NCBI GenBank assembly: GCA_037379345.1
Contig: CM074518.1
Coordinates: 38,157,586-38,221,585 of the forward strand
DNA: 64,000 bases
Source of the DNA: Perna viridis
Lineage: Eukaryota
Direction: 5' to 3'
Shown: in pieces, positions 33 to 59,924 of the stretch
Numbering within the stretch: position 1 is the first letter of the stretch
Layout of the letters: every line of letters starts with the position of its first letter
The notes under the pieces: generated by a model
Told to the model about the DNA's origin: nothing
What the model saw: only the letters and a program-made list of their open reading frames with translations
Database searches by the model: none
Translations under genes and position numbers: made by a program

Positions 33-649
33 TCAGGGGATATATCGATCAATGTCAGAAGTATCTAGAAAATTCCTGATGTATTTTCTAGCATACCATA
101 CAGCTTTGTGTAATGCATTTGTTACAACTCTCCATTCTTTCTCTCTTTCAGAAGGAGGAGCTGGAAAATATGAAAAACATACTTTCTCAAGTGCATCAAG
201 CTTTATAGGACATGCAGTTACATTCTTAGGAATAGCTTCTTTAATTGCACAAATATGTCTGAAAACAGTCGTAGCGAACCGATGTCTCTTTCCTAAGCAT
301 GAAGACATGGCATCATTTAAAATATCAACGGGAATACTGTAGGGTTTTACAGCTGGAGGGAGAGTATCAAAGTTATCCATGTTTTCAACTAATTCCAGAG
401 GTTGTTTCCCTATAAGCTTCATCAATGACAAATTCCAGAATTTGGGATCACACATTTTCACTTTAATCCCTTTCTTTGGTTTTGGTTTGCAAATAGGTAT
501 GACTAAGCCAGGATCATAAGATGGAAAGCCAGATGAACCAGTCTGATCCAGATAAAACTGGCATGAGTCGGTTTGATCTGGTATAAACTGGGTTCTGTCT
601 CCCATACCATGAGCTGTCTGTCTGGAAGAGCTTTCATACTGTGCATAAT
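33..649 (-). CDS. Gene A alternative terminal exon A6, BEN-like domain
   Basis: Acceptor ttgttttcag|AT, phase 1, open to the stop at 33. The C-terminus (FATTVFRHICAIKE...KLDALEKVCFSYFP...EWRVVTNALHKAV) follows the BEN pattern, though diverged. Confidence 0.72.
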
Positions 650-1029
650 CTGAAAACAAAATGCCTCAGTCTTAATCTGGGTAGGTTTTAGTGTTCTTTC
701 AAAATTACATTACAGAGGAAGAATCGAAACTTCATAGTAAATACTAGATTCAATTTAATTTGCATTTCAACCGGAATGTCAGACATATATTATGCAAGTT
801 ATATGCATACCCTTTCAAATGAATGGTAGAAAAAGTCTAAGAAAAACAAGAACTTCTATCTATGGATTAACCTTTTAAAACTTTCAAGGATAACAGTCTT
901 CACAACTAACTTTCCAGATCACAGGCCATAAATATATTTTTTAATCATTTTTATATAGTGTTTGTTGGCCTGTAGTAGTTAATTTTACGGGCCCACCTTC
1001 GTTTTGACTAGCCTTGGGCCTCGGATTAC

Positions 1030-2020
1030 TGTAAAGGAGATTGGCTTATACATGTAGTTTGTAGAGCAAAACTTATTTGTGAAGGATATTGGCTTTACAT
1101 GTAGTTTGTAGAGCACAACTTATCTGTACAGGAGATTGGCTTATACATGTAGTTTGTAGAGCACAACCTATCTGTAAAGGAGATTGGCTTATGCGTGAAG
1201 TTTGTAGAGCACAACCTATCTGTACAGGAGATTGGCTTATACATATAGTTTGTAGAGCACAACTTATCTGTACAGGAGGTTGGCTTATCTCTGCATGTAG
1301 TTTGTAGAGCACAACCTATCTGTACAGGAGATTGGCTTATGCATGTAGTTTGTAGAGCACAACCTATCTGTACAGGAGATTGGCTTATACATGTAGTTTG
1401 TAGAGCAAAATTTATCTGTACAGGAGGTTGGCTTATCTCTGTAGTGTAGCTTGTACAGCAAAACTTACCTGTGAGCCATTGGTTTAAATATGAAGTTTGT
1501 TAAACAAAACTGGTATGTGCAGGAGACTGAACAGTATATGTAGTGTAGTTTGCTCCAGAAAACTTATCTGTGAAGGAGAATGGCTTATGCATGTAGTGTA
1601 GTGGGTAAAACAAAACTTATCTGTGGAGGGATTGGCTTATATATGTATTCTGTAGAACCAAACTTGTCCATGGAGGTGAAACACTAAAACATGCAGTCTG
1701 CTCAACAAAACTTATCTGTGAATGAGAATGGCTTATGCATGTAGTGTAGTGGGTAAAACAAAACTTATCTGTGGAGGGATTGGCTTATATATGTATTATG
1801 TAGAACCAAACTTGTCCATGGAGGTGAAACACTAAAACATGCAGTCTGCTCAACAAAACTTATCTGTGAATGAGAATGGCTTATGCATGTAGTGTAGTGG
1901 GTAAAACATAAATTATCTGTGGAGGGATTGGCTTATTTATGTATTCTGTAGAACCAAAGTTGTCCATGGAGGTGATACACTAACATATGTAGTCTGCTCA
2001 ACAAAATTTATCAGTGTGGA
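1030..2020. repeat. ~48-bp minisatellite grading into a ~148-bp higher-order (trimer) repeat
   Basis: Unit ggagattggcttatacatgtagtttgtagagcacaacttatctgtaca recurs (attggc at 1088, 1135, 1183...); the longer unit starts at 1561, 1709 and 1857. Confidence 0.9.
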
Positions 2021-2649
2021 ATATATATACATGAAGTTAGTAGGACCATAACTTACTAAATCTCAGTCATAACAGCATACATTTTTCTTGAATGATCACT
2101 GGTAATTAAATTTGTTGAATTTTGGAATATGACAACAAATTTTCAATATTTTTCAATTTATCAACTAAAGGAAAAAGTACAATCTGATAATATCATCCAA
2201 ATTAATTTATCACAATAGCTTATTCATACAAGGTTCATTTTAAAAAGACTCACAAAATTTAATGATAAAATGTACTAGAACACATGATCAACCAGTTACC
2301 TAGTAGCTACCTGTAATACAGTGGTCTCTATCAAAACTTAATCTTAGAGGAAGTTTCCCAAAATCATGTTCGCAAGTCTTTCAACTCAAATATTAGTAAT
2401 GACATTTAATTTTTTCATGAGGTAAAAGTGTTCACCATTCCAAATTTCAGAAAGAATTGCATGCCATTTTTACTTCTGACAGTTGACATAAATAACAATT
2501 ATCTGAAGTAGAATAAAAATTCCATTTTCCTACATTAGTGAATTTTTTTTGTTTGAGTTTCCATACACTACATAATCTCCACTTTCACTGGACTCTTCTT
2601 GCCTAAAGCCCTTGTTTTAAGGACCAATCCTTGGTTTATTTGTACAGAA

Positions 2650-3790
2650 GTTTGGATTAATTGCTATCCATCACACTGAGAGTTATTCCTCTTGCTATAC
2701 AAAATGGTGTCCAGGAAACAGTCTTTGATATATTTGTACAAAAATTTGGACATGCAGCTGTCCATCTCATTGAGAGTATAAATTCCCCTTGTCTAAAACT
2801 TCTGTTTTCAGGAAACAATCTTAGATATTTGTACATGTTTGCACTGATGTCCAACATACTGAGATTTATTCCCCTTGACTAATACCTTTGTGTCCAGAAA
2901 ACAATTTTCGATATATTTTTACAAAAGTTTGAACATACAGCTGTTTATCTCAATGAGAGTACAAATTCCCCTTGTCTAAAACTTTTGTTTTCAGGAGACA
3001 ATCTCAGATATATGTGTACATGTTTGGACTGATGTCCATCATACTGAGAGTTATCCCCCTTGATTAAAACCTTTGTGTTCAGAAAACAAATTTTGATATA
3101 TTTGCACAAAAGTTTGAACATATAGCCGTCCATCTCACTAAGCGTTATCCCCTTGACTAAAAACTTTGTATTTAGAAGACAATTTTTTTTATGTATTTGC
3201 ACAAAAGTTTGAACATATGTCTGTCCATCTCACTGACAGTTAAGTGTCAGTCACTGTAAGAATCAGGCAGTACGTGAAACATGGTATAAAAAAACTATCA
3301 TTTTGAAAGTGTAATCTGACTACTTGCACCATCAGAATTGAGGAAAACAGACAAGATTTTCCATATCATGCTGCACAATTTAGTTACAATTTCACTGAAA
3401 TGCACTGAAAATGAACATTTCAAGGACAGATAACTCTTTCAAAAACCATATTTTTTTTTAGAACCTATTGAAAATTTTCTGACAAAGCCAGTGATGTAGA
3501 GGTCAAATAATGATCTTTTCAAATAGAGAAAGCAGATCAGTGGGTTTTTGACATGCATGTTTCTGATTTTTCCCATTTTGCCTGATTCTTACAAGTACTG
3601 ACACTTAATCAATTGCCACAATCCTTGGTGTTCAGAAAACAATTATTGATGTGTTTGATGTATTTATACAAAAGTTTGAACTGTGGTCCATCTCACTGAA
3701 GAGTTATTCCCCTTGCCTAAAGTTTTTGTTTTCTGCAAACAATCCTGGGTTTGTAAATGTTTGGACTAACTGCTGTCCATCTCCTTGAGT
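2650..3790. repeat. Degenerate ~92-bp tandem repeat, interrupted by a MITE and overlapping the end of exon A5
   Basis: ccatc(t/a)cactgagagttattcccctt-like core at ~2668, 2762, 2851, 2947, 3036, 3130, 3224 and ~3688. Confidence 0.8.
3240..3608 (+). mobile_element. TTAA-flanked non-autonomous DNA transposon (Kolobok-like MITE), copy 1
   Basis: TTAA-gtgtcagtcactgtaagaatcaggca ... tgcctgattcttacaagtactgacac-TTAA terminal inverted repeats; related copies at 8944 and 58755. Confidence 0.75.
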
Positions 3791-4428
3791 AGAAGCAGAA
3801 ACTGCATATTGAACATTTCTCTGTGTTGTATTAGGTACTACATGTAAGCCATGAGGAACATGCTGTAATGAAGGATCTCGCAAAGAGTTACACTGGATTT
3901 TTTGTTTGTCATAAGCAGTTCTAGTTGATTTGTCATAAAGGTTTCCTTGTTGTCCCTCATAATCAGGCTGTGTATTTTGTAACAGATTTACTCGAGGGGA
4001 GCTAAACTGGCCATGTTGGTGATGTCTATCAGTATGGCCACTCTGTTGTCTTATCTCAGTCACCTGAGCTTGAGGGGCCATTCTAAGTGTTTGTTTACTC
4101 CCATCCTCTTTGTTTTCTGTGTTTTTGTCTGAAGGAAAGTGCCATGAATGGAAGTCTTCATAACAATTGTACAACATCCCAGGCTTACACAAAGCTACAT
4201 TACATTTGAAACACTTTGTGCGGGTGTAAACAAACCACCCTGCTCTCGTTTTTCGCTTCCCACTCTGGCACATGAAACATAATTTTTTGTCGCCTTTGAC
4301 TAAAGTGTGACCAAGATTAGCCCATGGATTGTCAGATGAATTAGTTTTTCCACCGATGAAAAGTTGTACGTTGCTCAATTGGTGGTGTTGCCTGAGTATG
4401 TCAGGAAGTAATGAGGAATCATGGGAGC
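3704..4428 (-). CDS. Gene A alternative terminal exon A5, piggyBac-type cysteine-rich domain (CRD)
   Basis: Acceptor ctctgttttcag|GC, phase 1, in frame with ORF 3704-4378; HTLVKGDKKLCFMC...TRAGWFVYTRTKCFKCNVALC...CYEDFH. Confidence 0.82.
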
Positions 4429-5169
4429 CTGAAAACAGAGAAAGAGTTCGATAACTTGGAATCTGCCAAACATCACTTCTTTACAACTGATACATTTTCA
4501 AATCATGATATAGTGTAGTTTTGAAATAAGGATTATGCCATATTTGAGGAGGAGGCAGATTCCAATAACAGAACTTCTCTGCTCTGTATGGGTAATAAAT
4601 GACAAACACTAATTTTTTTTTTTCAATTTGTTAATGTTTAGTTAAATATATAACAAAATCTTTCCTGTATTCACCTTCAAAAGAATCCATTTTTTCATAC
4701 TATTCAGTAAAGTTAAATAATCATTGGCTACACAGAATCCCCATTAGTGATTTCTATTTTTTTTGCAGACATAACAATAGTGGAAGTGGTGGATCCAGAC
4801 ACTTTGAAAAGGAGTAGTGCTAGGACATTATTAACACTTTTTGCCAATTTTTCAAATAAAACACCCTTCACCCCTGGATCTGCAACTTAGTGACACTGAC
4901 TATAAAAATAATATTTATTATGATCACTACTGCCAGCATTTTTCCAAATTATCTGACCATCTTTAGGTATGTCCAGTGTTCCCAAATAACAACTTTAGGT
5001 AGACTTGGTGTCCATTGATAGACTATAGTCAAAGCAAAGCAATTTTCCTCATCAAAATGACTTTAGTATGAAAGGTTGGGATGTGTACAATGTACATGTA
5101 TCTTATAACAGTAGCAATATGCTTTATGTTTTCTCCAAAAAAAATCTTTTTTTGAGAATATAAACTTCA

Positions 5170-5562
5170 AAATTATTGAAGTCATCACTACAGAAGTTTT
5201 ATGGTCATCATTATGAACTTGTGGATCGTTATGGTGTATCCATCAGCACCATGAAAACTGATTTATTCAACGGGTCATAGTTTTTCTTTCCTCGTTTGTC
5301 TACCCCGGACTTGAATTTTTATGAGCAACTCGGCGGGTGTTTCTAGAAAAGCAGAGGACGCTTACCCTACCGGTGCACCTGGTCCATGCTCCCAGTTTTT
5401 AGTGGAGTCCGAGTTGCTCATTTACTTTTGTAACTTTGTATGTATGATTTTAGTTACTTTATGTTCTTTGTTGTGTATGTCTGTTTTCCATGTCTGGTCT
5501 TTGTCCCTGGATCACATTCTTTTGATTACCGCTAAAACCTTGGTTCCCTTGATTACTCTTTC
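5170..5562 (+). mobile_element. 3' fragment of a Penelope-like retroelement
   Basis: Encodes KSSLQKFYGHHYELVDRYGVSI followed by a shared 3' region; near-identical copies at ~27535, ~29170 and ~39025. Confidence 0.65.
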
Positions 5563-6308
5563 AATAAGGTTTGGAGAAAACCATAACAAAAGTGGCTTGC
5601 TTAATCATTTTTTTTTATTAAACACGCACATATTGTCAAAAAATACTTGGTGAACTAGAAAAGGCCCTTTAGTACGAAAGGGGTGTCATCCATACATTAA
5701 TACAGTAAAAACCCATACAGTTTGCAAAATATTTTTTTTAAGAAATTGTCCTTTCACATGCGGTCCGCCCTAAAAAAAACCAATGGTGATTTTCAAAAGT
5801 TGGCTGGTAATGCAAAGGTCAAATATAAAACATCTGATTCAGCAGTTTTGTAGATAAATTTCTTTAACTTACCAAACGCACTTTATTTCATTGTTACGTA
5901 CAAACGTTAGCTTTCTGCCTCAAAAATCGGTCATTTGCTTTAAATTTCATTTATAGATGCATTAATGGATACTTTACAAAATGTATGTTCAGTGCCCATA
6001 ATTATTAGTCATAAACTAACCCTCAATTTTTGGCCTTATCTTCATAATGTAGTGAGCCCATAAGAAATCATGATTTACATTTACATTCATCAAATACATA
6101 TACATGTTATTACTGTGTTATCACACCAAAACCAAGTGAATTTAAAACACAGCAATGCAAATAACATCCCCACACCATTTTGCATATTATTCCACATGTT
6201 TTTTAGTAGTAAACATAGAAAGGTAATTTATGCACTACATTTAATAACTATTGGAACATTTGTATGTCAGACTGATGCGATTGTCTAATCTAAGCAATAG
6301 TAACATCC

Positions 6309-6904
6309 TCACTTCTTGTTTGTATATGACCACACAATATCAGATTTGACAGAATCTTTTATCATTTGATGATACTTGTCAAAACAGCCCCTTAATCCAC
6401 TACACAAGGGCACATCACATACATCACAGTGATAATAGGACTTAATGTACCATCCACAACTGGTCTTATTTCCGTTGCTCCTACAGAATGCACAGGCCTT
6501 AGCTTTTGAGTCAGTGTTGCGTACTAAACAATGAACACTGGTAGGATTACAGGAACCATGAGCTTCAGTGTAAGGAGGGATAAAGCTAATAGAAGGTCCT
6601 GTTACGTTTTGGTCCCAACGAACTATGAGGGGACTTGCAGAGTTTACTATATCGGAAGTTTCACAAGTTTGCTGGATATGTAATTGATCCTGTGCTTTAA
6701 CAAATGGTGTTTTCTCATTTGGTTCATTTTTGTTCCCAGGTTGATATTGTATAACCTGATGATGTTCACAACTATTCCTTTGCATTACCATGGAAACCAA
6801 GTGATTAATTTCCTCTTTGAACTGTTTTCCTGTATTCTGAAGATCATATCCTGGAATATTTGGTTTTTCCAGGGAACCAGTAACTTCCTGTTTATTCTGT
6901 TTCC
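6309..6904 (-). CDS. Gene A alternative terminal exon A4, piggyBac-type CRD
   Basis: Acceptor ggtttattacag|GG, phase 1; HCLVRN...CAFC...KTSCGWYIKSYYHCDVCDVPLC...CFDKYH, then a stop. Confidence 0.83.
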
Positions 6905-8544
6905 CTGTAATAAACCAAAGGTAACCAGTGATCTTCATTTGATCATGATGATTAGACTAAAATTCAATAAACCTTCCGTCTTTTTAATTAACAGTATATA
7001 GCGTTTGTTAAAATGGACAATTTTTTCACCTCTGTCAACATTAGAACATGAATAAAGGACCCTGAGCACTTTCATTAATAGGCAGAAGCTAGCCATTCTA
7101 ATAATTCATTTCTAGTCCAGAGAAACACATCTATACAAAACCCTGAATAATCCAAAAACCTGTCTAAACAAGACATCTGAACATGTCTCAACCAAACCAA
7201 TTTCAAAACTTTTTTTATATTTCAGAATTATACACCAAGAAAAATAATGTGAAAGCCTCAAATATAGCCAACATTTTATTTCTAAAATACCAACACTAAA
7301 CAATACATAAATTAATAGCACACAGACAAAAACATGCAAATATAACGATACGGATTTCTATTCATTAATTGTTCCCTATTTCTCTGTAGTATGAAATGTC
7401 TAGGTCTCACACTTAAGGAGGCGCATGTAGACCTGGGGTAAGGGACATAACTCTTGAAATCAGTGACATGTTTGTATTATATTCAATTACACCAAAGCCT
7501 ATCAAGCTTTCATTTGAAATAGAATGAAATCAATCCAAGTTATTTTGATGCTTTGATTGATGTCAAATGCAGAATACAAATGTTCCAATGATTTGTAAGA
7601 GTTGTGTCCCTTAAGCTGCATCCTTGAACATTTTTTTTATAAATCATGACCAAAATATGTGACATTACCAACTTTGGTACAGCTTACACTTCATGAACTG
7701 CAAAGTGAGTTACAAACAAGTGCAAACTGTGCAGAAGTTGGTTATGCAAACATAACATAAAAAATTTCAAAAAATATAAAAACTATCCTGATCCTTTCAT
7801 TCCTAAATGATTACAGTCCAAATTAAGATTGAACTTTCATCAAAATATTGTTAGTTTGGGACTATTTGAATGATAAGTTGGGACCGATTGATCACAGTAC
7901 CATGTAAGTTTTAAACAAAATAACCTATGTCGTTCAACCAATAAGAAAGTTTGACACAAATCATTTTTATTTTTATTTTTATAGCAGTATAAATCTTAAC
8001 TTTCTCCACTTCTTAAGAAGAGCTTCTAAATCGTTGATCTTCAGGTAGCCAGTATTCATAATGGTATTAGGTAGTGCAGAAATAAATGGTGTTTACATAA
8101 ATCTATAGCATTTGTTAGGGGGAACAGGCCGTTTTGATAGTCAAATAACATTTTACCACAGATAACCAAATTTCCTAAGAGCCATACCACAAGTGGACAG
8201 ACAGATGGACAAAAAGGAAAAGATCAAAAGTTATGAGCATAAAAATCAGTTTTATAAAACATACTGCACATTCAACCATAAATGAGGCTTCATTTAAATA
8301 AAAAATTGCATGGAAGAAATAGAAGAAACACAAGTTTTATTAAAGAATATACATGTATATAATAACCCTCCAAGGTGGCAAGGGCAGGGGGCAAAAATAC
8401 ACTTAGTATTAGTTACTAGCTACCCAATTTTCAGAGATATATGTCAATCAAGGTCTTACTACAGAGAAATCAGGAACATAATCACACTGAAATGTCATGG
8501 ATTTATTATAAAAGCAATACCTTACTACCTTCTTCCACAACTTG

Positions 8545-8805
8545 CCACAGGCAAGACAGAAAGTCCCTTCTGTGACTCATCACAGGCAAGACAAAAAGTC
8601 CCTTCTGTGACTCATCACAGGCAAGACAAAAAGTCCCTTCAGTGACTCATCACGGGCAAGACAAAAGGTCCCTTCTGTGACTCATCACAGGCAAGACAAA
8701 AAGTCCCTTCTGTGACTCATCACAGGCAAGACAAAAAGTACCTTCAGTGACTCATCACGGGCAAGACAAAAAGTCCCTTCAGTGACTCATAAAGGACAAG
8801 ACAAA
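8545..8805. repeat. 35-bp minisatellite, ~7 copies, each with an AP-1 site TGACTCA
   Basis: tgactca at 8573, 8608, 8643, 8678, 8713, 8748 and 8783. Confidence 0.92.
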
Positions 8806-8943
8806 AACAAATAATCTCTCTGATCAGAAAAAATACAGAAAACTTAAGCAAGATTTTATGACACCAAAACTATTCAATGTCTATTAAAACTTCAAACACT
8901 AACAAATACTCTTCAAGTTAAAAAGATTTCTTAAACATATAAA

Positions 8944-9160
8944 TTAAGTATAAGTGTTTGTAAGAATTAGGCAAAGTGGGAAAAATCTGAAACATGCATG
9001 TCAATGAAATTGTAATTCAATGGTGCAGCATGATATGGAAAATCTTGTCTGTTATCCTTGATTCTGATGGTGCAAATAGTCAAATTACACTATCAAAATG
9101 ATGGGTTTTTTATACCATGTTTCACCTACTGCCTGATTCTCACAGGAGCTGACACTTTAA
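8944..9160 (-). mobile_element. Kolobok-like TTAA MITE, internally deleted copy 2
   Basis: TTAA at both ends; termini match the 3240 and 58755 copies (ttaa-AGTGTCAG...gaatcaggcag). Confidence 0.7.
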
Positions 9161-9666
9161 AATAAGGAAAAATGTATAAATGCTTGTAGCTAAATAAAAA
9201 ATAAATGCAAATGTGCCATTCATTCCAGAAGACAAAAAAATAACTAAAGGCAAAAAAGTTAACTACACCTAGTATTTTTTTAGTTAGATGGTAGGTTGAA
9301 TAAAATTCAAAAAAAGAAGTTGAAATTTGAAGTAAATTTAAAAATGCGACCTTTGAAATACAGAGTCTGATTTCAGTCTGACAGTAAATAAAAAAAATGT
9401 CTATCAGCAGATCTGTATTACTTAACTGGTATCCTGGAAAAATGAAACCCATGTGACTGAACTGGTCACCCCATGCAAATAGCTATCAGGTTGAAAAAGT
9501 AGAAAATGAAGTTTCTGTAACCTGAGTCTTGATATCCCCAACTTTCATGAATTGCTATGCATTTTGATAACTTTAGATACAAACAAAAATGAATCTGGAC
9601 AGTAGACAAAAACAAATATGTTTAAATTACTGCTGTGACACCAATTAACAGCACAAAATAACTAAC

Positions 9667-10001
9667 CGTCTTGTATAGGGTTTGTAAGTCTCGTTTTAGT
9701 TTCAGTTTTCCTTCCGGAATTTTCGATGTAGAACGTATTGAAATACGAAGACCGACTTGCATTTTTGTGTTTACTTCCGGGAAATCGAAGCGCTGCATCA
9801 CAATGCAAAATCTTCTATTTTCATACCTTTCTTAAATTTTTTTTCCTGTATAGCTAGATATTTGTCATTTTTTAACAGTATTTTTACACAGAAAGATATT
9901 TTGCTTTTTATGTTGAACTCAGTGCTATGTTAATGACGAATCTCAATGCATCTGAATGGTAGACGAGGACCCATTCTCATGAAAACGCAGAGTCACGTGA
10001 C
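9667..10001 (-). promoter_or_regulatory. Candidate internal promoter and short first exon inside the variable-exon array of gene A
   Basis: Local CpG-rich patch in CpG-poor DNA; ETS CCGGAAGT (9780-9773), TTCCGGAA (~9712), palindromic E-box GTCACGTGAC (9992-10001), donor ACG|GTTAGT at 9667. Confidence 0.5.
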
Positions 10002-12360
10002 AAAACTTACATACCCTATTAATTTAAATAAACAATCTTGATAATAAATCATTTAAATCAGACATTAATATCTAATTTACTTTTTTGAACTATTATTCAA
10101 CAGAACTCTTTAAACATTGTTAAAAACAAATTTCTCAATAAATTACCTATTTAAACAATTTCTATTTTCAAGACTAAAAAAAAAACTTAAAAGAAATAAA
10201 AACCTGAGACATGAAATGACTAGTTAAAATTACCCTGCTTGAAGCAATATATAACAAATGAGTATTGTATAAAATATAAATCACAAAACAAGTGATTAAA
10301 ATAAGAGGAATACACATATAACACAGCAAGGATTTCATTACATATCATGCATTTCTTTATAAAATATGAACATCTTGTACATTTAACATGCGGAGTATTA
10401 TGTTTTACAAATAGTACATATCATGAACAGGGAACCTGTCTAAACTGAGCCTTGAACAAAGCTGTTACCTGTGTATACCAGATATCTAATTAAGTCCACT
10501 CATATCAGTTTTACTACTTTTTTAATCTGTGTTAACCAAATACTGTAAAACGTATTATATTTCGCTGTTGCTAATTTTCACAGATTCTGTCAAGTGAACA
10601 TTTTTGCAGATATCAATTTTCGCTGTTTCAAAAAATGATTATTGTTATCATAGTGATACAAATCATATTTGTGGGTACTATTCTATGCGCTTTTCTCTCT
10701 AAAGTGAAAATAGCGAAATTAAGTACACCCTGAAAATTAGCATGTTTGCAGTATCTGCCTTTACCAAACTAATCTCTCAGTTCTAAAGAAGTTCCGTTTA
10801 GAAGGTCAAAGGTTAATAGTCATGTGCTAAGAGTGGTTCCAATGGTTTTCAAATTACCTTGGGTGTCAAATTATTACCCTGTGAATTTCTGAAAACAGAT
10901 CAACTTCAAAATATTCGTAAAAAGCATGGTTATGAAAATATAAAAGGACTGCCATTATACCTCATGCAATAAAAAAGACATTGTCTTAACAACTCACAAC
11001 TGATTTCATCAAAACTTGGCATTTTGAAAGACAATTAAACACTTGCATTCAGAATGGAATTCAGTCTTAAAATACATTATGGTACTTGAAATAAATAAAT
11101 AAAGAGGCATGTGTTTCACAAGAAATTGTCAATAATATATACCACATCAAGATTGTACATTAAGTTCTCAGATGTTGGAAGACAGCTATCATTTTAACAA
11201 TTATACACTTGTGAAAATTGAAAAATAAAAAACTGTTATTCTTATTTATTAAAAAGTTATCTTTTACATCTTTAACCCAGACCTGAGTATGCAATGGATA
11301 AAGTTGGCACATAACACAATGTCAATTCAGAAATGATGGCTGATAAATCATTGTTTTCAACGCTTTAAAGAAACATTAAAGAGGTAAACAGTGTTAACCT
11401 ATGACCTGGTTACTGGGTGACAGAGTATAAGCCACTTCCTTCTCACTTAGTTTGGAGCGTCCTGAGCAGTGGACTCCCTAACATAGTTCTGCCTAAAATA
11501 TCATAATAAACTGCTGAGCTCACCTTCATGACCTACCACATGAACCCCCACCTTTATTTTTTGGGTTGAAAGTCCCATAACTCTCCAATGGAAAATCTGA
11601 AATATTGTAAGAGGAAAGAAAGCTGATTTCTTACAAAGGTTTATAACAACTTTACCATACTTTCATTGTCCTTCCAGCCTGATATTTTCTTTCTCTGGTT
11701 TAACTGCCCTCTCACTAAAAATTTCACTGGTCAATTTCCAATCACATTACAACAAATTTATTTTTTATATGGCCTTTGTAATTTTGTAAAAGGTGGCCAA
11801 CAGGCCCTTAAAACGGACCATGATGGCCCATAAAATTTTCTAAATAGTCCATTTGGCTTTTGCTTTATATTGATTCAAGGTACAATACACCCATTCTGTT
11901 TCCTAAGCTCTATTTGTGATTGAAAAAGAGTATAGTAAAAAAACTACGCAATCATTTCTGAATTACATCACCTATATATACATGTACAACGTCATAAATA
12001 CAATATAAAGTCATTTGAGTATTTAAAATTGCACCAAACTGAAGAAAAACTAAAATACTAATATCTGGCTAACAAAGTATAACAAATAAATAAAAGTCAA
12101 TGAACGGGATTTTTGTAAACAACCTTGTCAAATTGCGATTTAAAACTATATGTATCAAAAAAAATTCTTACTGTCGGCATTTACATGGAATTCTACATTT
12201 GAAAAGAATCAATCTTGAGACTCGTTTTGATTTCGGTTGGGACTGTGATATCTTAATGACAAAAGTAAAGATGAAAAAAAAATTAACTAACAATCAATAT
12301 TCATCTGAAAAAGACTACGATATATATTCATGAAGTCATGGTTGAACACATTCGGCCATT

Positions 12361-13280
12361 TCATAGGAGATATTCTTGTTGATTTGGTGAGAAGGATGGG
12401 TCTGCTGTTTCATCCCCATTCGTTTTATCTTCTTTAATTGGCAAGGTTTCTTTATCTTGAGCTGAATCTGAGTTGGTCTCGTCAAAATTTGGCACATCTA
12501 TATTGGATTCAGCTGAATCCATTGGATCAGGACCATTTTCAGTAGTGTTGACATCCTTAGGATCAACAGTAATGAAGTGTTGTTTCTCAAAGTCTTTCTT
12601 TGCAACTAAAGGATTAGGGATTGTTATGTCCTCAGTTATTATGCTAGGGGGTGGTGATACTTTATGAGCTACAAGACTGTTGTGGGTTTCATTCGGAGTA
12701 ACCAGATTAGGCGGCATTACACTCGGAGCTACCAGGCTGGGAGGTGTTATATTTTGGTCAGGATCTAACATACCCCCGTAAGCCATAAGTTGATCCGAGA
12801 TTGACTGTGAAAGCATGCTGGTAAATTCTTCATATTTCGGAGTGTAACTTGTCAAGCTTTGCTTGGGGCTATAACCTTCCTCAGTTTTAACATTTTTCCT
12901 AGATTTCTTTGGGGCCTGTGAAGCTGTCGCTTCTTTCAGGGTTTTCAACAACATTTTAGGAGACAAATCAGGCTGTTCCATTCTCAACTCATGGTAGCGA
13001 AGAAAACAATCCTTCTTCCCTTTACACAAACAAACATCACAAGCCTCACACTTATAATATGACTTGATAGCCCACCCAGATTTTGTTTTAAGACGAAGTA
13101 TGTTACAATAAGCACAAGCCCTTTTATGGCCAGTAATATGGACCAGTTTGTGCCCAGGCATGAATGCTATTTCCTGATCATTAGGGTCTTCAGAGGACAC
13201 CTCTTCCTTCCACCCAGGGTATTTCTTAGCTTTAACACAGGCTGGCATGGGCTTAGTTTTAATCACTGGCTTGATAGGTG
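12361..13280 (-). CDS. Gene A alternative terminal exon A3, piggyBac-type CRD plus an acidic/Pro-rich tail
   Basis: Acceptor ctttatactttcag|CA, phase 1; HKLVHITGHKRACAYC...KTKSGWAIKSYYKCEACDVCLC...CFLRYH. Confidence 0.85.
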
Positions 13281-14943
13281 CTGAAAGTATAAAGAGAGGC
13301 TAGTGTTAGCTTGACGTAAATGAAAAATTTTGCGTGCAAGAAAAATTAACATACACCTCATGGGAATCACTAAAACATTTTAAAAGGGATCTTTTTTTAT
13401 TCAAGAAACACTGCCTCTCTTTTTTATACTTCATAAGCCCTACCCCCCTCCCTTTTTTCATTTATTCCACACCTTTCCTCCTGCTCGTGTTCCTAGTTTT
13501 AGTGAAACCCTGAGACCAATGAACACTGCAGTACTTAATGTTTATACAATCATGCCAGGGTTATTTCATGCATATCTGTATCCATCTAGTATTTTGTCAT
13601 GCTAAAAATTTCGTTTTTCCCAATAAATCAGATTGATTATAGAATACCTTCAGGCTAATGAAAATCGAAGTTTGCTATATCTCCATTAAACAAACTTCGA
13701 TTAGATGCTCCTTGCATAATACTACTGGTTTGCTTATGTCTCATATTTTGCAAATAAGAATCAACACTCAAATCAACTTTCGATCTCTTTTCACCTACAA
13801 TTTTTTTTTCTAATTGTTCTCTGAACAGCATTCCAACTCACTTCTATAAAACAGCATTGTACCAAATTATCTCCTTTTTAAACCAACCAGAATTACAAAA
13901 AATCAGTGACATTATTTAACATAATAACAAGATTTATTCAAGGACCTTTGTGAAGATATCTTAATTCAAAACGAATATCTAGGCCTATCTTTTCAGCTTT
14001 GTTCTATTCTGATGTTATCAACACAAATCTATTTTCAAAGAAGTTACAGATGTTTGAATATACTGTTTAATGAATTCTTCACTATCTAGTACATATTTAA
14101 TGATGATTTCCATATAATTTATTGATGACATGTCAGGCTTCAACTCTAACAGTCGTCTGGTAGTCCTGTGCCTACCTAATTTGTAAGAGGACTACCTTAA
14201 AATATCAACGGGCAGTCCTTTGGGCTAGCCCAATTAGTTCTTAAAATTTCATTAGTCCAAAGAACAGGACCACAAAATAATTTAGAGGACTCCCTAATTA
14301 TCTATCACATAGTCCTGTGGGCAATCTATCATGAAAAGTTAGTCTCAAAGCCTGCATATTATACCTACTGGAAGACTCGAAAGCTATGGTACCCTTCCAC
14401 CTGCTAAATAGTCCATGATATTCAAAGCAAACAAAGCCTACGTCCAGTGACCAGTCAAACGAATCGATCTACTTTGAAACCATTTGTATAAAAATTAAAT
14501 CTTTAAAAGCTAAATCAACAATTAACATGTCATAGATATTTATTCTGTTTCAAGTATTGCAACATATACATATGGAAAACAGTCAATAATAACTGATGCA
14601 TGTGACAAGGTGCTAACGGAACATGGCATTGATTCTGCTAGAGCTTTCAGGTATTTTACTTCCTAAAAAAACGTGCAAGTCGTGGACCAAGCAACAAAAT
14701 AAACATTGAAATTTTGAACACCAATAAAATAATTGAAAGACTTGATACAATACCTCCCCTCTACATGCACTTATTTTGTACATTTGTATATATATCAATC
14801 TGGAATGTAAACAATGTTCATAGTCAACCTATCCCATGTACAGGAAGTACCAGAATGTCAATTTTTGTGTTGCTTAAAGATATTGGTAGATTTGGAACAT
14901 TCAATGTAATAGCCTTTGGAGTGATGCTAACTGAAGTTATGCT

Positions 14944-15446
14944 TTAAAATGGAAATTTCCCAATTGATCTTCTATCGTCCATTTTCATGTACCCATAGTC
15001 CGAGAAAGAGTTTCTAATGCCTTTATCAATGGCAACAACACACTCCCTCCACATCTGAGGGTAAAGAGAATTATTCCCTACAGGATAATATGCAAACACT
15101 ATTTTTTCAATTTTATCTAGTTTGGCCCCATCTAAAGGTAGCTTGCCTCTGCGACCAAAACAGTTGTGATCCTTCAATTCTGAATCAGTAAAGAAATGCC
15201 TAACCAGTCTCCAAGCAAAGTTCTGTCGTGACACCGCAGAAGCCAAAATTTCTTCAATAGTCTCCTGCTCTTCCACAGGCACACATTCAGGCCTGTTTTC
15301 AAAGTTAATAACTTTGATAGGAATAGCATCTTCAATATAAGGAAAAGTCTCCATATTATCACCTCCCATGACAGTTTTTCCATCTTTAGCAGCCACAACC
15401 TTGAACTTGGGATGATCATGTTTGTTTTGCCTGTTACCATGGTAAC
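14944..15446 (-). CDS. Gene A alternative terminal exon A2, BEN domain
   Basis: Acceptor tgctgttgcag|GT, phase 1; SRQNFAWRLVRHFFTDSELKDHNCFGRRGKLPLDGAKLDKIEKIVFAYYP...WRECVVAIDKGIRN is a typical BEN domain. Confidence 0.87.
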
Positions 15447-16674
15447 CTGCAACAGCACACAACAAAATGATCATCCTTAGTTTACAAGCTGAGTTTGTTT
15501 CAGGTACAAATGTATTTCACAAAATCAATGTCTTTTTTTTTCAGTATTTTTTACAATTAAGAACATGGCTATTAAGGCATGTTATTTAAGATTTTTGGAT
15601 ATTTATGTAAATCTTGAGCAAGTATCAAATTTCCATGACATATGAACAGTAGCCAACACACTGAACCAGATTAGACACACCACCATGAACTATGACTAAA
15701 TAGAACAGACATTCTATGCCAGAAACCCAAACTCAACCTCAGCATTGATACTTTGCAACACCCTCCCCCTTTTATTTTTCTCTACAGAATTACCCAGTGT
15801 TTGGTACGTGTATAATTCTAAGTCAAAAATCTGTGCTAATCCATTTCCAACATGCAAATTTTCTTTATTTACTCAGAAGACATGACATCAAGAACTCTTT
15901 ATATATTACACCTACCTGCATGAATATTGCTAAATATACATGTGTGTCACATCAGCTAGCATCAAAGTCACATTTGTTAATTTGGATATTAATTACCAGT
16001 ATATTGAAGATTGAGAAAACAAATGCTTTTCATTAGGCTTAGAAAATACTTAAGGCTGTGGTAGTAAATCACACATCAAAATTAATTTGAAAGCTTTTTA
16101 TTGATTCGGTTGTAAGTTTAAAAATTAGTTATGAGGTATTTTTAGTTGTTACCATGGGAAAACAATGACCCACATACTTATTTATAGCAATATTCGTCTG
16201 TTCTTCAGCATACGTCTGCATTCAATGTTGATTCTTTTTTTTTTATTTTCAACAAACAGGAAGTTATCTACATATACCATGTACTTACACATCATCAAAG
16301 CATTCCTTTTTAAAAATAAGGACAGTTAGAATCTTTCTGTATTGATTCATTCATCTCCGCAAGGCACAAAATTTGAATCTTAAGTTACTCAAAAATCACC
16401 CACTTCATTTTTACGGCAAAACAATCTATACTTCTTTTTTCAAAGATGTTTAATAATAACAGAAATGTTTATACAAGAACATAGAAAGTAATTTGCATAA
16501 TTTTGAATATACATGTATATTACATACGGTTCAGCTTTTTTCTGTATGAACAAAATATACAAGTACAACATTACAACATGTATATGTTAATAATATAACA
16601 TCCACTACAGGCTCTTAGTGATAGATAAATGTACATGTACATGTATGTGTCTTTTCTGATTCCAAAAGTGTAGT

Positions 16675-17285
16675 TTAATTGGAATCTTCCTGAACTTTAG
16701 ACTTAGCCTTAACTACAGGTCTCCTGAGGCTTTCATTTATTTTTGTAATTGCATTTAATTTCCACAATTCTATATTTTTCAGTTCTGGATGGAAGTATGT
16801 GACATATCTCTTGATGTAACCTTTCCTAGCAGGATCAAGGGCATGTTTGTGCTTTGGACCCCCACCAAAATATGAATAATGAATTCTCTGCCCATCTGGA
16901 CCATATAACTCTGGAAATAACCTCTCAGTAATTTTTTTGGCAAAGTTACCCGAGCCTATGCTCTGTTTATGTATTTCAACTAGGTCAGGAAGAGATATGT
17001 AAGATTCTTGAGGAATGTCTTTGAAAGGATCCCCCTTAGTTTCACTTAGCAACTTGTGATAGTCGACAACATTCCATCTTGTCCTCTCGCTAGTATTGCG
17101 TGTTTGCTGATCATGAAATCTCTCTATATTTTTCACACGTAAATAATTTATTCCAACATTTTCAGAGCTCTCCATATCATTATCATAGGGAACTTGTTCC
17201 ACATGATCATTTTCAGTATTTTGTACAACAACATAATCAGCTCTTTTTTCTATTATTCCAGTGCTTTGCAAGTCACCAATGTCAT
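16675..17285 (-). CDS. Gene A alternative terminal exon A1, BEN domain
   Basis: Acceptor atgtcatttcag|AT, phase 1; GNFAKKITERLFPELYG...ALDPARKGYIKRYVTYFHP...WKLNAITKINESLRR. Confidence 0.82.
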
Positions 17286-19942: not shown

Positions 19943-20223
19943 CTTTGAACTGTCCAATGTACCAGGAATTATTTTGATCATTTCCAGTGGCTTCATTTGA
20001 CATTTCATCCCTTGACCAATCACCAGAGGCCTCTTCCAGCTCTAAATCACTCTCTTCCTCTTGATCCCGCTCTCTTTGATGATCTCCCATTGCCCCCTCA
20101 ACTGGGACATCAACATACATGTCTAACCCAGGATCGGAGGCAGGTTCAATTTTGACCAGACTTAAGTCTGGTGCCATGTCAGTACTGTTAGTTGCTAAGC
20201 CATCATCTAGTTTACTTTTACCC
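19943..20223 (-). CDS. Gene A last constant exon (acidic linker); ends at the shared phase-1 donor
   Basis: Acceptor ttctgtttcag|G (phase 2), donor AAA G|GTAGGT (phase 1); homologous to 49391-49740 (VKIE/VKVE, GLDMxVDxP, GDW). Confidence 0.85.
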
Positions 20224-21599: not shown

Positions 21600-22765
21600 C
21601 CAGTATCTTTGCCTGAATCTGTGGAAGGTGGTCTATCAATTTCACTTCCTGTAGAGGATGATGGTCTATTGGCTGATGCATCCTGGGACATATTGGCAAC
21701 TTGGGATGCACTTCCTGCTGCAAAAGACTTTTTGTTCTGATTTTGCTGATTGATAGGAGACAAATTGGCTGTTGACATACTAACAGGGAACAAGCCTCTT
21801 TGATCAGGGGGAAGTGGTGACTTTTTGGCAGATTTTTCAACAGAATCTCTATGACCTTCAAACATTGGTTTGTGGTTTGAAGGAGTTGAAGTAGACCCTG
21901 GTAGTACTGAAAGTGGACTGACTGTAATGGATGTGTCTCGTCCTGTGATTGGGACATCATTAGCTATGGTTGGATGAGATGATGAATCGGTGACATTGAC
22001 TACATGTACATCGGTGGATGGGTTGACTTGACTAGATACCGATATGGCTAAACTTTTCTGTACAATGGGCTGTGCCGACTTGTTATTGTCCTTGTCTGAT
22101 GGTTGTGTTTGTAGGATTTCTAATCCATCCTCCACAATTTCTATGACCCCTGATCTCGGTGGAGGACGATGACCTGCTCCCATTCTTGGCACCCTTTCCC
22201 AAGGATCACTTGCTGCTTGATGACCCATATAGCTGTGAGCCATACTTAGAGTGTCGTCTGCTTTCTGACCAAACATAGCAAGGTCAATATTCGGACTAAG
22301 AGGTCTTTGTTGTTGTTGCTGTTGTTGTTGTTGCATTCGTTGACGTTTTCCACCAGGACTGACTGGTCTCATTGAATCAGCTGCTGCACGCTTCATCATT
22401 CTCTCTTGAACAGTTTTTTGAAGGTCTGTTGTTCTTACATGACGGAATTCTAATAGATCAGCTGATGAATACTTATACTGTGTGTTTACATATGCATGTA
22501 CACCTGTTTTTTTCTGTAAACAATTGTAGAAGTCTATACAACACTTTGTAACATTATCAACTTGTAAAAGCCTTGCAACTTTCTCAATGTCCTTTACATT
22601 TTCTTCTGTTAACATCATAAAGCCTTCGTACAAGTACTGTAAGAATGAATTGACTGCTTCCTGCTTTATGTCAGCTGCCAACCTGACTTCCAGATGTGAT
22701 CCTACAGCAGCATTATCCATAGACTGTAGCATGGGACAAGCTGCAACCAACACCACTCTATGGGC
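21600..22765 (-). CDS. Gene A constant exon: BTB/POZ C-terminal part and a long low-complexity linker with polyQ
   Basis: Acceptor ttttcag|GCC CAT (AHRVVLVAAC...FLQYLYEG...VARLLQVDNVTKCC); donor GG|GTTTGT, phase 2, matches the next exon. Confidence 0.92.
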
Positions 22766-23160: not shown

Positions 23161-23289
23161 CTTAGTAGTTACATTTCCAGTCTTAATTAAGGCATCACAT
23201 AACATCTGAGATCTCCACATCTGAGCTAACTGTCCAAGTAAGGAACTCGAGTGGATCTGGTTCATATAAACTTTTTGATACTGATTCAT
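23161..23289 (-). CDS. Gene A first coding exon, BTB/POZ N-terminus
   Basis: MNQYQKVYMNQIHSSSLLGQLAQMWRSQMLCDALIKTGNVTTK; acceptor 7 nt before the ATG (exon starts at 23296); donor AAG|GTAAAA, phase 0. Confidence 0.92.
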
Positions 23290-43600: not shown

Positions 43601-46529
43601 GTTTGTTCCCTCTGATGGTCATTTAAGCCAAAAATTGTTCATTACAGTCGTAAGTCGAAGGTCACGGGACCCCAGAGGGGTTACTCCCAAGAAAAGTATG
43701 AGGATTTTTTGCAACTTTAGGATTACATGGGCCTAAATCCGGAAGTGGTTAGTATATTGGGTTGAAAATGTTGGAGTGGTGAGAGACATCAGTGTTCTAT
43801 AGAAACTAGGTGAAATGAAGTACTATGGGTCCATTCTGCTGTTGTTAGAGGCCGAGAATTTAGCCTTACTCCTAAAAAATCACAACTTTTTGTGGGCCAC
43901 TTAACTTGTGACCTCTTGTGACAAACATCAATATATTACAGTGCATGCACATGTTGCTCAAATGAAAAAGGCTCCTCAATACTATATTCTTTGTCTCATT
44001 CATACATTACTTCAGTATAACCCATGCAGTTTACAAAATGTGTCCTGAAAATGTTCGTTCACGCGTTGTCCCACCTAAAAAACCCTAAGGAGTTATATAA
44101 GTTGGCAGGTATGCTCCTCGCACATTATATACAGTCAACTCCAGCAAATTGGATATAAAAATTGTCAACGGAAAATATTCCTATGTCTGATATTATCAAT
44201 TGGTTGATGGACACCTTTTTTCAGCTTTTTTTTTTTATTGAGGAAGGGTATATCTTTTTTTGCAATATATTCATTTGTATACTGTACAGGTATAGACAGA
44301 TACCTGTACAGCAACAAATATCTCAGTTTTGCAGTGAGTATTTTGATCAAAACTCACATTTAGGTCACCTGTTATTCATAAGATTACTTACCTGTTAATT
44401 ACCTGAACAAATACAATTTCAGCTATGAAATTTACCCTTTTCTTGGAAATGAAAATTTCAAAATTTCCAAAGTTCTCGGAAATGGGAGGTCTCTCCAATT
44501 ATGATGATTAAAGGCAAATTTAAAGTTAAGGTCATCATAATTGACAGCTTTTCAAAGTTCTAAGCTGTACTAAGTTTAGGCAAAAATATATACGTTCATG
44601 TGTGTTTCTGGTTGCCAAGGCAAAAAAATGCAGGTTGGTAGGTCAGAATTTTGTTGATATTGGTCAATGGTTATGGCTCAATCAGCTTCACTTGATTCAG
44701 GTACTCCATAATGAAAGATACACTACATAACTGGTTGAATAGACTTCTTTAAAGTTAACTACAGTACACTCATGCTTGCTCTTCAAATTGGGGTATAGTA
44801 GAATGACAATCCGAATCGTACATGGAACAGTTGGGATCAGGATCAGAACAGAAATGATTTTTTTTCCAGGAATTTAAAGGAAATAAATCCATGTCAGGAG
44901 TTCCGAGTCCAGGTCAAATGTCATTCCTTGTTTTACATTTATTACATGTTGAAATAGGATAAATGATGGGAAAGAGTGAACAACCAAAACATGGTTGCGA
45001 GTGTTGCAGAATGCACTGACTTGACAAGTGATGCAGAGTTAAATCTTTTATTGTTCTTGGTACAAGATCACAAGTTACAATATTTTTGTTTTTCATGATT
45101 ACCAATTGATAATCCTATTTATTATCAAGATTTTATCCTAAATCTGATAATATTTTTAACATTTAATTTTAGAATTTTGATAGTGCTGATTGATATGCCT
45201 GGTGTGACATTTTGGCATGACAAATTTTGAGAGTGAAATTACAGGATTTATTTCACAGTGAATAATTGAAATTTATTACATTGTGAGCATTTGATAAATC
45301 ACAGCTGTCAATATAATAATACAATGCCTCTTAAAAATATCACTAGCATTCAAATAGTTACAATAATGTATTAGAAATAAATTTCAAATCGACACATTAA
45401 GTTTACGAATTCACTTTTTCATCCAACCACAAATATTGTAGTAGTACTTGATAGTATGCTACTTGTATGGTGCTATTGTCGCTGCAAATTTTTTCATTTC
45501 TGTGCAATAACTTCAGTTGTGGTCGACTGAATGTCATGAAATTTTGATATATTCAGGGGTTTCATTAATTTTTTAGGCAGGAGGTACTTTACAGAAAGGG
45601 TCTGGGAACCACTTAAGGCCCCCAGTGGGTCCAGGGTGGGGAAGCCCCCCCCCCTATTATTATCTATAGCAGTGTTGAATCTCCGATCCAATATTTTTTT
45701 TATATTCTTGTGAGCAAAGTTCAGACATGTTCTTTTCAAACTTAGGGTTGCCAGAACATTTTTACTTCAACTCCCCCTCCCCGCCGCGTCGAATGGTCGT
45801 CCCTTAAATCATATTCTGTAAAAGTTTGTTTCATGTATTGACTCGTTGTCAACACTAAAAATTCCTGCACTCGTCTGCACAAATCACGACAAATATCAGA
45901 AAAATGACAGGTATGGAGCAATTCCAAATATGAACAGCTTTTTTTTAACACGTTTTCATACAATCTTCACCTGTTTAACTTTTTGTTCTGCACAAAATAA
46001 TTGGTGATTGTTAAGTCACCACATTTTCTATAAATTGACACTACATTAAATCGTCATAGGTGAAAGCGCTTTACTGATTAGATTCTGACATGGACCTTGA
46101 GGACGACACCAATTATATAAACAATAATAAACACTAAAGATCATGATTTTGGAGACATACATGTAACCTGCAGACGAACGATCTTAGATATCTATTTACT
46201 AGATTTTTCCTCATGATTTTTTTTGCTTTTATTTTTTTCTGCCGGTACCAGACGCTGACGTAGCCGGGTAAAAGTACCAGATACCGGCTCTTAATGAAAG
46301 CACTCTATATTGGTGAAAGTTTGATATTTGGAGTTGGATCAATAGTTCCTACAGTACTGAAAAAAGGGGTAAAACGAGTGCTTATTTTAATTTGATGTAG
46401 AAAGATTTATGATGCTATTTTTAATCAATTTTAAATTCTGCAACAGCCCTTTTATGAATAAAGAACACCAGCAGATTATTGAAGAGATTTCTTAATTCTT
46501 TCAGGTACAGAGAAACAAGACCAATCAAG

Positions 46530-46655
46530 ATGAATTATCAGAAAGTTTATATGAACCAGATTCACTCGAGTTCGTTACTATGTCAGCTAGCTCAGATGTG
46601 GAGAAGTCAATTAGTATGTGATGCTTACATCAGGACTGGAAATGTTACTACAAAG
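46530..46655 (+). CDS. Gene B first coding exon, BTB/POZ N-terminus
   Basis: MNYQKVYMNQIHSSSLLCQLAQMWRSQLVCDAYIRTGNVTTK; acceptor ttctttcag| at 46504; donor AAG|GTAAAA, phase 0. Confidence 0.92.
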
Positions 46656-48879: not shown

Positions 48880-49390
48880 GTAAGTTATCAGAATATAGCC
48901 TTTTGTTTCTTCATTGTATTTTCAGGATCTCAGGATTTTCTTTCATGCAATAAAATCTGTTTCGGCTTGCCAAATTGTTTACAATTTTGTTAATGCAATT
49001 ACTTTCATCTTGCTATTCTTAATACTTTTTATAGCAATTAATTTATTCCATTTTTAGGATGGATGCATATTGTCTTTCTAAATTTATCAAATTGGCAAGA
49101 CAAATTCTGGAAGAGATTGAGAAAGTGAAATGCTAAAATAGAAATTTTCATTGCATTATGTTTAGTCGATATGGATTACCAACCAGTCAATGGGAAAGAT
49201 CCCAGTGTCATTCTAAATTGTTTCATCTTTCATGTACATGTATTGAAATATTATAGGTCATAAACTTTGTTGAAAATCTATCTACCTTACCTGAATGTTT
49301 TTGTTTTTGTTTTTTTTCATTTCTACTTGAGCATGGAATAGACAATCATTTTTAATATAGGGCTAATTTTAAACAATATTCCATTTACAG

Positions 49391-49740: not shown

Positions 49741-49965
49741 GTAGGCTTCCTTTCTTTATTTCATTTCTTTAATCAAAAGATTTTGGCGCATTTTTGTCAG
49801 CTTGCTAAACTTGTGCACTTCTGTTTAAACATATAATACCTCGGGGGGTTTTTTTTTGTTTGTTTGTTATTGGTACATTTATGTACATGTATAAATCCAT
49901 GTTAGTTAAAAAAAAAATCTATCATATGTCTGTGTGATTGTATTGGTTTATATTCTTTAAAATGA

Positions 49966-59893: not shown

Positions 59894-59924
<31 letters not shown>

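Follow-up and report, generated by a model that had tools for sequence, protein, structure and literature searches.

Can a single bivalve gene exchange one predicted DNA-binding fold for another by joining a common front part to different last exons? The question is raised by the window analyzed here, a stretch of 64,000 nucleotides of Perna viridis, in which a BTB gene on the minus strand (gene A) is followed by an array of open exons (array A). An earlier note had described these as three very different BEN exons interleaved with exons for cysteine-rich domains (CRDs). Our best explanation, to which we assign a probability of about 0.8 as a whole, is that gene A is one bivalve BTB gene whose single donor faces 15 alternative last exons, with transcripts that likely carry one tail each, tails that would select different DNA sites, and an array that would have captured modules from transposons. 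Exon anatomy, common phase, folds, conservation among bivalves and contig breaks at five acceptors are the observations on which this explanation stands.

A common BTB part and one splice donor

The constant part of gene A, 525 codons and one base, is encoded by three exons on the minus strand. The first (23161..23289), with its ATG at 23289, encodes the N-terminal part of the BTB domain and ends in a phase-0 donor; its N-terminus recurs in Mytilus isoforms. The second (21600..22765), an open frame, encodes the remainder of the BTB domain (Pfam BTB, 41.6 bits) and a Ser/Pro/Gln-rich linker, while the third (19943..20223) is acidic and terminates in the common phase-1 donor AAG|GTAGGT. Residues 21-170 are 91% identical to Mytilus, and all Mytilus isoforms diverge at one and the same residue, at the end of exon 3. 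The best solved relatives of the Mytilus BTB orthologue are Miz1, BACH1 and KLHL3, with no Tramtrack-group protein among the best 60 of 65. A quick BTB tree did not single out a scallop or oyster orthologue of gene A.

Last exons within and beyond the window

Six CAG acceptors follow the donor at 19943 on the minus strand (17285, 15446, 13280, 6904, 4428 and 649), and from each of them phase 1 is open to the exon's own stop. The order given in the earlier note, namely BEN, BEN, CRD, CRD, CRD and BEN-like from the donor, was recovered with exact acceptor coordinates. The first exon (16675..17285) carries a BEN domain that exceeds the Pfam cut-off (PF10523, 27.5 bits vs 23.2) and is kin to BEN ORFs adjoining Tc1/mariner transposases. 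The BEN domain of the second (14944..15446), of the classical type, scores just below the same cut-off (22.8 bits vs 23.2, E 1e-4), with an alignment that covers positions 2-75 of the 76 in the profile. The third (12361..13280) encodes a piggyBac-type CRD with a long C-terminal tail; its Pfam search gave no match, the CRD Cys/His pattern is kept, and identity reaches 40% to one Mytilus CRD and 56% to the Mytilus isoform P0123. CRDs are also found in the fourth (6309..6904; PF13842, 27.3 bits, above the cut-off) and fifth exons (3704..4428; 18.6 bits, E 0.003, below it). The sixth (33..649), closed by a TGA at 35-33, encodes a divergent domain of BEN fold, preceded by a helical extension at its N-terminus and shortened in the alpha3/alpha4 loop. 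Phase alone should be considered weak evidence: when 155 acceptor-like sites were scanned without bias, long frames turned up not only in phase 1 (8) but also in phase 0 (5) and phase 2 (1).

Both arrays of the window were followed past its edges, as the earlier note had proposed. Array A gains one BEN, five CRD and three Crypton-type DUF3504 exons outside the window and thus totals 15 last exons (4 BEN-fold, 8 piggyBac-type CRD and 3 DUF3504, with no FLYWCH tail among them), all downstream of the donor on the same strand. With PF13842, six of the eight CRD exons score over 24 bits, one lies below and one has no match; two of the three DUF3504 exons exceed 29.7 bits with the DUF3504 profile, and the third shares 31-35% identity with the orthologues of these two. 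This third fold was absent from the earlier note, as was the transposon link of exon 17285 described below. Gene B, a divergent paralog on the plus strand whose constant exons are held by ORFs at 46458..49769, precedes array B, which starts on the same strand with one C2H2 and four CRD exons in the window (55919..63134) and comprises 30 exons overall (1 C2H2 and 29 CRD). No BEN exon was found in array B, neither within the window nor over the 100 kb beyond it, and the proposal that the two paralogs differ in repertoire was thus upheld. Four further paralogs bear Psq/C2H2 arrays, and the contig carries at least six arrays with about 118 candidate tails, both numbers being lower bounds.

BEN lineages and a link to Tc1/mariner transposases

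The strong divergence of the three BEN exons was confirmed, with pairwise identities among the cores of 17285, 15446 and 649 of 21% (20/97), 7% (8/115) and 22% (22/101); to their own Mytilus orthologues, the cores are 58%, 71% and 53% identical. Judged by their sequences, the three window BEN exons are separate lineages. A single clade of all array BENs was rejected by the tree test, and an origin of all of them from one BEN exon by tandem duplication was rejected on the core divergence together with the tree tests. These BEN exons are intact and single-copy in a genome search. With exons 649 and 15446 this search returned only themselves, and as it missed a known neighbor of 649, it is insensitive to relatives of these two.

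New here is the finding that the BEN domain of exon 17285 clusters with BEN ORFs adjoining Tc1/mariner transposases. Eight dispersed relatives of this BEN were found and six were fetched. A Tc1-type transposase lies within about 3 kb, in divergent (head-to-head) orientation, at all six (two of which were the source of the queries), as compared to 0 of 80 control loci of 10 kb, and Pfam HTH_Tnp_Tc3_2 or DDE_3 is present at five of the six. In the BEN tree, which is unrooted, quick and based on 129 columns, and in which the tested groups were named after the tree was viewed, 17285 clades with the transposase-adjoining ORFs with an SH-aLRT of 96. Two BEN-transposase copies have several kb in common at 85-96% identity. 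The copies are decayed, and no convincing terminal inverted repeats were seen among the five longest arms listed at four of the six loci; in the window, no transposase was found. The array tails were apparently borrowed from jumping genes, a direction on which the unrooted tree is silent. Among the matches listed in the literature searched (main texts, with few subscription journals), we found no description of BEN cargo in Tc1/mariner elements, nor of bivalve BTB multi-tail arrays.

Exon 649 and the question of DNA binding

Pfam, PF10523 included, gave no match to exon 649, and its closest relatives likewise lack a Pfam BEN match; 8 of the 20 members of its alignment match PF10523 with E values no higher than 1 (best 2e-4), the closest relatives not being among these. 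A sequence search against solved structures returned nothing under E 0.6, and Foldseek on the predicted model (pLDDT 92.9) reached no match at the E 0.001 level, all values being above 0.5 and BEN entries appearing only among the weak rows. In a structure search with the same model, the five best of 48,161 chains were BANP, BEND3-BD1, NACC1, Bsg25A and BEND6, all of them BEN (Z 7.7-6.3, rmsd 2.2-3.9, 77-91 aligned; next row Z 5.0), although a Z under 8 can reflect a common helical arrangement. As modeled, exon 649 carries the BEN helical fold. The earlier expectation of a BEN match in every exon thus held by Pfam for 17285, fell narrowly short of the cut-off for 15446, and for 649 failed with Pfam but stood by fold.

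DNA binding predicted for exon 649 is doubtful, because its alpha3/alpha4 loop has lost some 15 residues relative to the Mytilus orthologue, a deletion shared by a 92% identical relative. The exon thus lacks the substantial loop of type I DNA-binding BENs, as these are defined in PMC8887127, where type I is described as contacting DNA through alpha5 and this loop, and where non-binding type 0 BENs are also described. It is possible, though the odds are against it, that the isoforms are real while some tails, in particular those of exon 649 and DUF3504 (the function of the latter being left open in PMC3212892), are protein-interaction or decoy modules, such that the gene would switch between binding and non-binding forms and not only between DNA specificities. 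Against this stand the long C-terminal helix of the 649 model, which is intact and basic, the type II mode of binding, in which the loop is small (PMC8887127), and the specific DNA binding of the piggyBac CRD (PMC5861402). Such a role for some tails is compatible with the splicing model.

Evidence on the probable splicing of the tails to the BTB part

Bivalve isoforms are present in the databases as unnamed models, and it should be considered that these are automatic gene models. In Mytilus, orthologues of all three window BEN exons are fused to the same BTB constant part, which is also recorded with tails orthologous to the CRD and DUF3504 exons; in scallops or Potamilus, this is so for orthologues of two window BEN exons. 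Orthologues of exon 17285 are P0019 and P0057. For exon 15446, BTB fusions are recorded in Mytilus, Potamilus and three scallops, and its longer relatives are BTB fusions in five of five cases, two of which carry PF10523. The orthologue of exon 649 is the Mytilus isoform P0130 (44% over 204 aa). In Pecten, a single gene combines one constant part with a BEN tail in one isoform and a CRD tail in another (P0256, P0081). Each BEN exon of the window thus has a BTB-fused orthologue, as opposed to one joined to other upstream exons, and isoforms with the same BTB part support the earlier idea of one gene switching between unrelated, predicted DNA-binding folds.

Contigs came from four sequencing studies (4 runs), the runs being only guessed to be RNA and none recorded as such. 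Among the 32 pieces listed, contigs begin at acceptors with 28-30 unplaced letters upstream, as splicing predicts, in 4/4 runs at 17285, 3/4 at 15446, 2/4 at 13280, 3/4 at 6904 and 4/4 at 4428. Offsets of the first placed base are 0, 2, 0, 1 and 1, respectively, in agreement with prediction in all five cases if the upstream letters sat at a GT donor. One low-depth contig runs through the 15446 acceptor unbroken, and no explicit donor-acceptor joint was seen among the 15 joints listed out of 102, all 15 lying at repeats. While contigs break at the other five acceptors, exon 649 has coverage alone (10-19 vs 0-5 in the next two bins).

Constant and variable exons could also be trans-spliced in the manner of mod(mdg4) and lola, with promoters inside the array. 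The insect analogues work this way, according to PMC11426971, and array A extends over about 50 kb, with a stop closing each exon and polyA-like hexamers after most of them, although such hexamers are common at this A+T content. Yet cis-splicing suffices, as all 15 exons lie downstream on one strand, and this analysis revealed no sign of internal promoters; we thus regard trans-splicing as quite unlikely. That the BEN ORFs are BEN-solo genes or remnants of transposons, lying within an array of CRD exons only and unspliced to BTB, would suit the stand-alone 649-type proteins in databases (P0244, P0245, P0247), the transposon-associated relatives of 17285 and the lack of a listed joint, but is very improbable given contigs that break precisely at acceptors 17285 and 15446, the BTB-fused orthologues, and BEN exons that are intact and single-copy in a window without a transposase.

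Under the preferred cis-splicing model, each gene A transcript likely joins donor 19943 to one tail only, a mutually exclusive choice that would be made through selection of the 3' splice site and of polyadenylation. The shared BTB front end is predicted to dimerize the proteins, the different tails are predicted to bind different DNA sites, and repression may be the outcome. As one BTB front end precedes 15 interchangeable last exons of three folds, gene A likely makes many different predicted DNA-binding regulators. The array probably expanded as transposon modules were captured as terminal exons in phase 1 and as exons were duplicated in tandem.

Comparison with known systems

Fold switching in one BTB gene is already known from mod(mdg4). 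In PMC11426971 and PMC4281564, mod(mdg4) and lola are described as having one BTB constant part and 20-30 alternative C-terminal exons, with mod(mdg4) tails being mostly FLYWCH and isoform C being BEN. Gene A resembles these Drosophila genes in its common BTB 5' part and many alternative last exons. Their BTB is, however, Tramtrack-type, reported in PMC11426971 as arthropod-specific with a motif not found in Mollusca, whereas that of gene A is nearest to Miz1, BACH1 and KLHL3; furthermore, gene A has BEN, CRD and DUF3504 tails in place of FLYWCH, and several paralogous arrays. The gene A system is thus likely a convergent bivalve version of mod(mdg4) with a non-Tramtrack BTB. Vertebrate NACC1 and NACC2 likewise combine a ZBTB-like BTB with BEN (the NACC1 BEN being among the five best matches to the 649 model), but hold one fixed BEN per gene, whereas in gene A, BEN tails of three separate lineages alternate with other folds. 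In KRAB-transposase fusions and CSB-PGBD3, transposon modules serve as alternative 3' exons on a host regulatory domain. Gene A is similar in this respect, yet those cases usually involve one capture per gene, while the gene A modules are related to three transposon groups and have multiplied. KCTD1b is an isoform in which DUF3504 is combined with a BTB protein, and KIAA1958 has two isoforms, each with its own DUF3504 (both in PMC3212892); in KCTD1b, the domain is N-terminal of a KCTD-type BTB, whereas gene A has three C-terminal DUF3504 tails in a mixed array.

A far wider reading would see a bivalve BTB cassette system, independent of insects, with more than 100 splice-selected tails from transposon modules (Tc1-borne BEN, piggyBac CRD, Crypton recombinase and Psq), acting as fast-turning transposon-recognizing repressors and as the functional counterpart of vertebrate KRAB zinc fingers. 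We consider this speculative and rather improbable.

Multi-tail BTB genes have so far been treated as an arthropod specialty that goes with the Tramtrack-type BTB. In bivalves, a family that has another BTB and about 118 candidate tails in at least six arrays on one contig would be clear convergence. As its three unrelated folds each have transposon relatives, gene A offers a compact model for the capture of transposon modules as last exons, and the link between BEN and Tc1/mariner gives a testable origin for scattered BEN domains. The bivalve arrays would, moreover, be a large overlooked source of mollusc transcription-factor diversity.

Gene A and its tails in the window

The window (G000:C8:38157586-38221585 in the Perna viridis genome) contains two divergently oriented BTB genes, A on the minus strand and B on the plus strand. 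The constant coding exons of gene A (23289-23161, 22765-21600 and 20223-19943, minus strand) hold 525 codons plus one base and terminate at a phase-1 GT donor, and its BTB region is 91% identical to Mytilus proteins, a homology that places the organism among the mussel-family bivalves. On the same strand, CAG acceptors at 17285, 15446, 13280, 6904, 4428 and 649 each open a phase-1 frame up to its own stop; the exons are exactly described in the earlier note, and the predicted isoforms measure 692-831 aa.

Among the three last exons (named by acceptor) that had been read as BEN or BEN-like, the Pfam BEN profile confirmed 17285 (27.5 bits, cut-off 23.2), was borderline for 15446 (22.8 bits) and was silent for 649. 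PF13842, the piggyBac-type cysteine-rich domain (CRD), was found in exons 6904 (27.3 bits) and, below the cut-off, 4428 (18.6 bits). Exon 13280, like exon 649, gave no relevant match in the Pfam profile search; it has the Cys/His pattern of other CRDs and matches them. The BEN sequences are indeed very different, their cores being 7-22% identical to one another, as against 53-71% to Mytilus orthologues.

The BEN identity of exon 649 was supported by its predicted structure. A model built from a 20-row alignment (pLDDT 92.9) had no significant Foldseek match; in a wide search of 48,161 chains, ranks 1-5 were all BEN (Z 7.7-6.3, rmsd 2.2-3.9) and the sixth had Z 5.0, and although Z below 8 may reflect a common arrangement, the top five belong to a single family. 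Pfam BEN was weakly matched by 8 of the 20 alignment members, the closest ones excepted. Compared with its Mytilus orthologue, exon 649 is missing some 15 residues from the alpha3/alpha4 loop; as a 92% identical relative shares the gap, this is no assembly error. According to the available text of PMC8887127, type I BENs use alpha5 together with this loop to bind DNA, and some BENs do not bind it. Given the structure ranking, the shortened loop and these precedents, the model supports a BEN fold, while DNA binding is uncertain; that this tail and the DUF3504 tails described below do not bind DNA is plausible.

Arrays beyond the window

Past the window, array A gains a fourth BEN-type ORF (L001:7239-8528), five CRD exons (5/5 over cut-off) and three DUF3504 exons (2/3 over cut-off), a domain of Crypton recombinase origin (PMC3212892, as far as consulted), and reaches at least 15 tails. 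Two of the DUF3504 tails seem to use a small additional upstream exon (L003:4978-5187 and about 8822-8929, minus strand), so not every tail is a single exon. Array B comprises at least 29 CRD exons and one C2H2 exon. Profiles from non-window BEN proteins, run against 8,193 ORFs (window plus 80 loci) at E <0.01, matched only the four ORFs of array A; the noted absence of BEN from array B holds over the sequence searched, and the repertoires of the two arrays differ. Two array B CRD exons, 61269-61604 and 62748-63134 (plus strand), are near-identical including their acceptor flanks, judging by which they are a recent tandem duplication.

Elsewhere on the same contig, searching the genome turned up 11 clear BTB relatives. 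Four of these paralogs (L022-L028, L035-L041, L042-L048, L049-L055, L078) have arrays of Psq helix-turn-helix exons, then C2H2 exons, with at least 19, 24, 10 and 20 candidate tails, counted from genome sequence alone; Pfam backed Psq in both cases tested. Another of the 11, a distant paralog, is followed by a single DUF3504 ORF (L029:1922-2848, minus strand). A further one is a broken copy of the gene B constant exons with a stop and a frame change (L004:866-3214, minus strand); it lies immediately beyond array A, and no array was seen with it.

Origin of the BEN tails

Eight dispersed relatives of exon 17285 occur in the genome, at 35-48% identity, and four of them contain stops. In each of the six that were fetched, two of which had provided the queries, a divergently oriented transposase of the Tc1/mariner type lies no more than about 3 kb away, against none in 80 control loci or in the window. 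These head-to-head pairs (L088:2638-5393 on contig C11, L089:1474-5186 on C3, L090 on C7, L091 on C9, L092 on C8, L093 on C7), whose transposases are decayed, are possibly an undescribed two-gene element family; no inverted ends were found around the pairs in four loci examined. In a quick tree, orthologues of 17285 cluster with the transposase-linked copies (SH-aLRT 96), 15446 forms a separate group (97), and the 649 group, joined by stand-alone BEN-like proteins (98), is also separate. A single clade of all array BENs was rejected (p-AU 3e-6, with groups named after the tree was seen). On the simplest reading, the 17285 BEN would have been captured from a transposon; the tree fits either direction of transfer. 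The piggyBac CRD specifically binds transposon ends, according to the consulted part of PMC5861402.

Relation to known systems

The consulted text of PMC11426971 and PMC4281564 gives mod(mdg4) at least 30 isoforms, most with FLYWCH and one with BEN, gives lola 20, and reports their Tramtrack-type BTB as not found in Mollusca. With a BTB closest to Miz1/BACH1/KLHL3, gene A works on the same principle as mod(mdg4) without belonging to that group. In the portions consulted, PMC12111275 describes oyster BTB gene clusters, bivalve tail arrays not being among them, and PMC10027918 lists mollusc factors derived from transposons, among them BTB fusions in Octopus and none from piggyBac or Crypton. An incomplete coverage of the literature yielded no account of a bivalve multi-tail BTB system.

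Splicing of the tails

Fourteen read sets were presumed to be RNA (a guess, as none is recorded as such), and four, from four studies, were mapped to 300-20299. Among the 32 of 22,583 pieces listed, contigs start with 28-30 unplaced letters at the acceptors of 17285 and 4428 in 4/4 putative RNA runs, of 15446 and 6904 in at least 3/4, and of 13280 in at least 2/4, and extend beyond the exon stops. The first placed base is offset by 0, 2, 0, 1 and 1 at 17285, 15446, 13280, 6904 and 4428, which at all five equals the overlap of the exon start with the first letters of the donor intron; we infer from this that the unplaced letters are donor exon sequence. The 15 of 102 joint rows listed were repeat rows only, with no donor-acceptor joint, and, on the contrary side, one depth-3 contig spans the 15446 acceptor without a break. 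Exon 649 has a read depth of 10-19, against 0-5 alongside, and no contig piece among the 32 listed.

Long non-coding stretches 3' of CRD exons (7585-8589, 10578-13280 and 2228-3269) are covered by contigs, possibly as long 3' UTRs interrupted at high-copy repeats. The intron directly upstream of exon 649 holds a tandem repeat (about 1029-2016).

Most likely, a single donor picks one acceptor and a nearby polyadenylation site, and the product would be a BTB protein carrying one tail. Trans-splicing of the constant and variable exons is a less likely alternative. That the BEN ORFs are separate genes, or are spliced to non-BTB exons, is unlikely: independently of the reads, Mytilus records, which like the other bivalve records are automatic models, share a single constant part whose tail changes at an identical residue, and the tails include an orthologue of each of the three BEN exons (P0019, P0018, P0130) and orthologues of CRD and DUF3504 exons. 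For exon 15446, all five of the longer relatives are fused to BTB (Mytilus, three scallops, Potamilus). In Pecten, a single gene has one constant part common to a BEN isoform and a CRD isoform, and exon 17285 has its scallop orthologue in one isoform of a gene whose other tails are C2H2.

The Mytilus orthologue of gene A also has extra BEN-like tails and two tails without a Pfam family (P0002, P0016, P0127, P0124, P0003, P0134-P0137); the fetched Perna viridis array holds no counterparts, and tails thus turn over within mussels. The gene A system is real and conserved between distant bivalve lineages. By analogy with the ZBTB family, the common BTB would permit mixed dimers with different tails.
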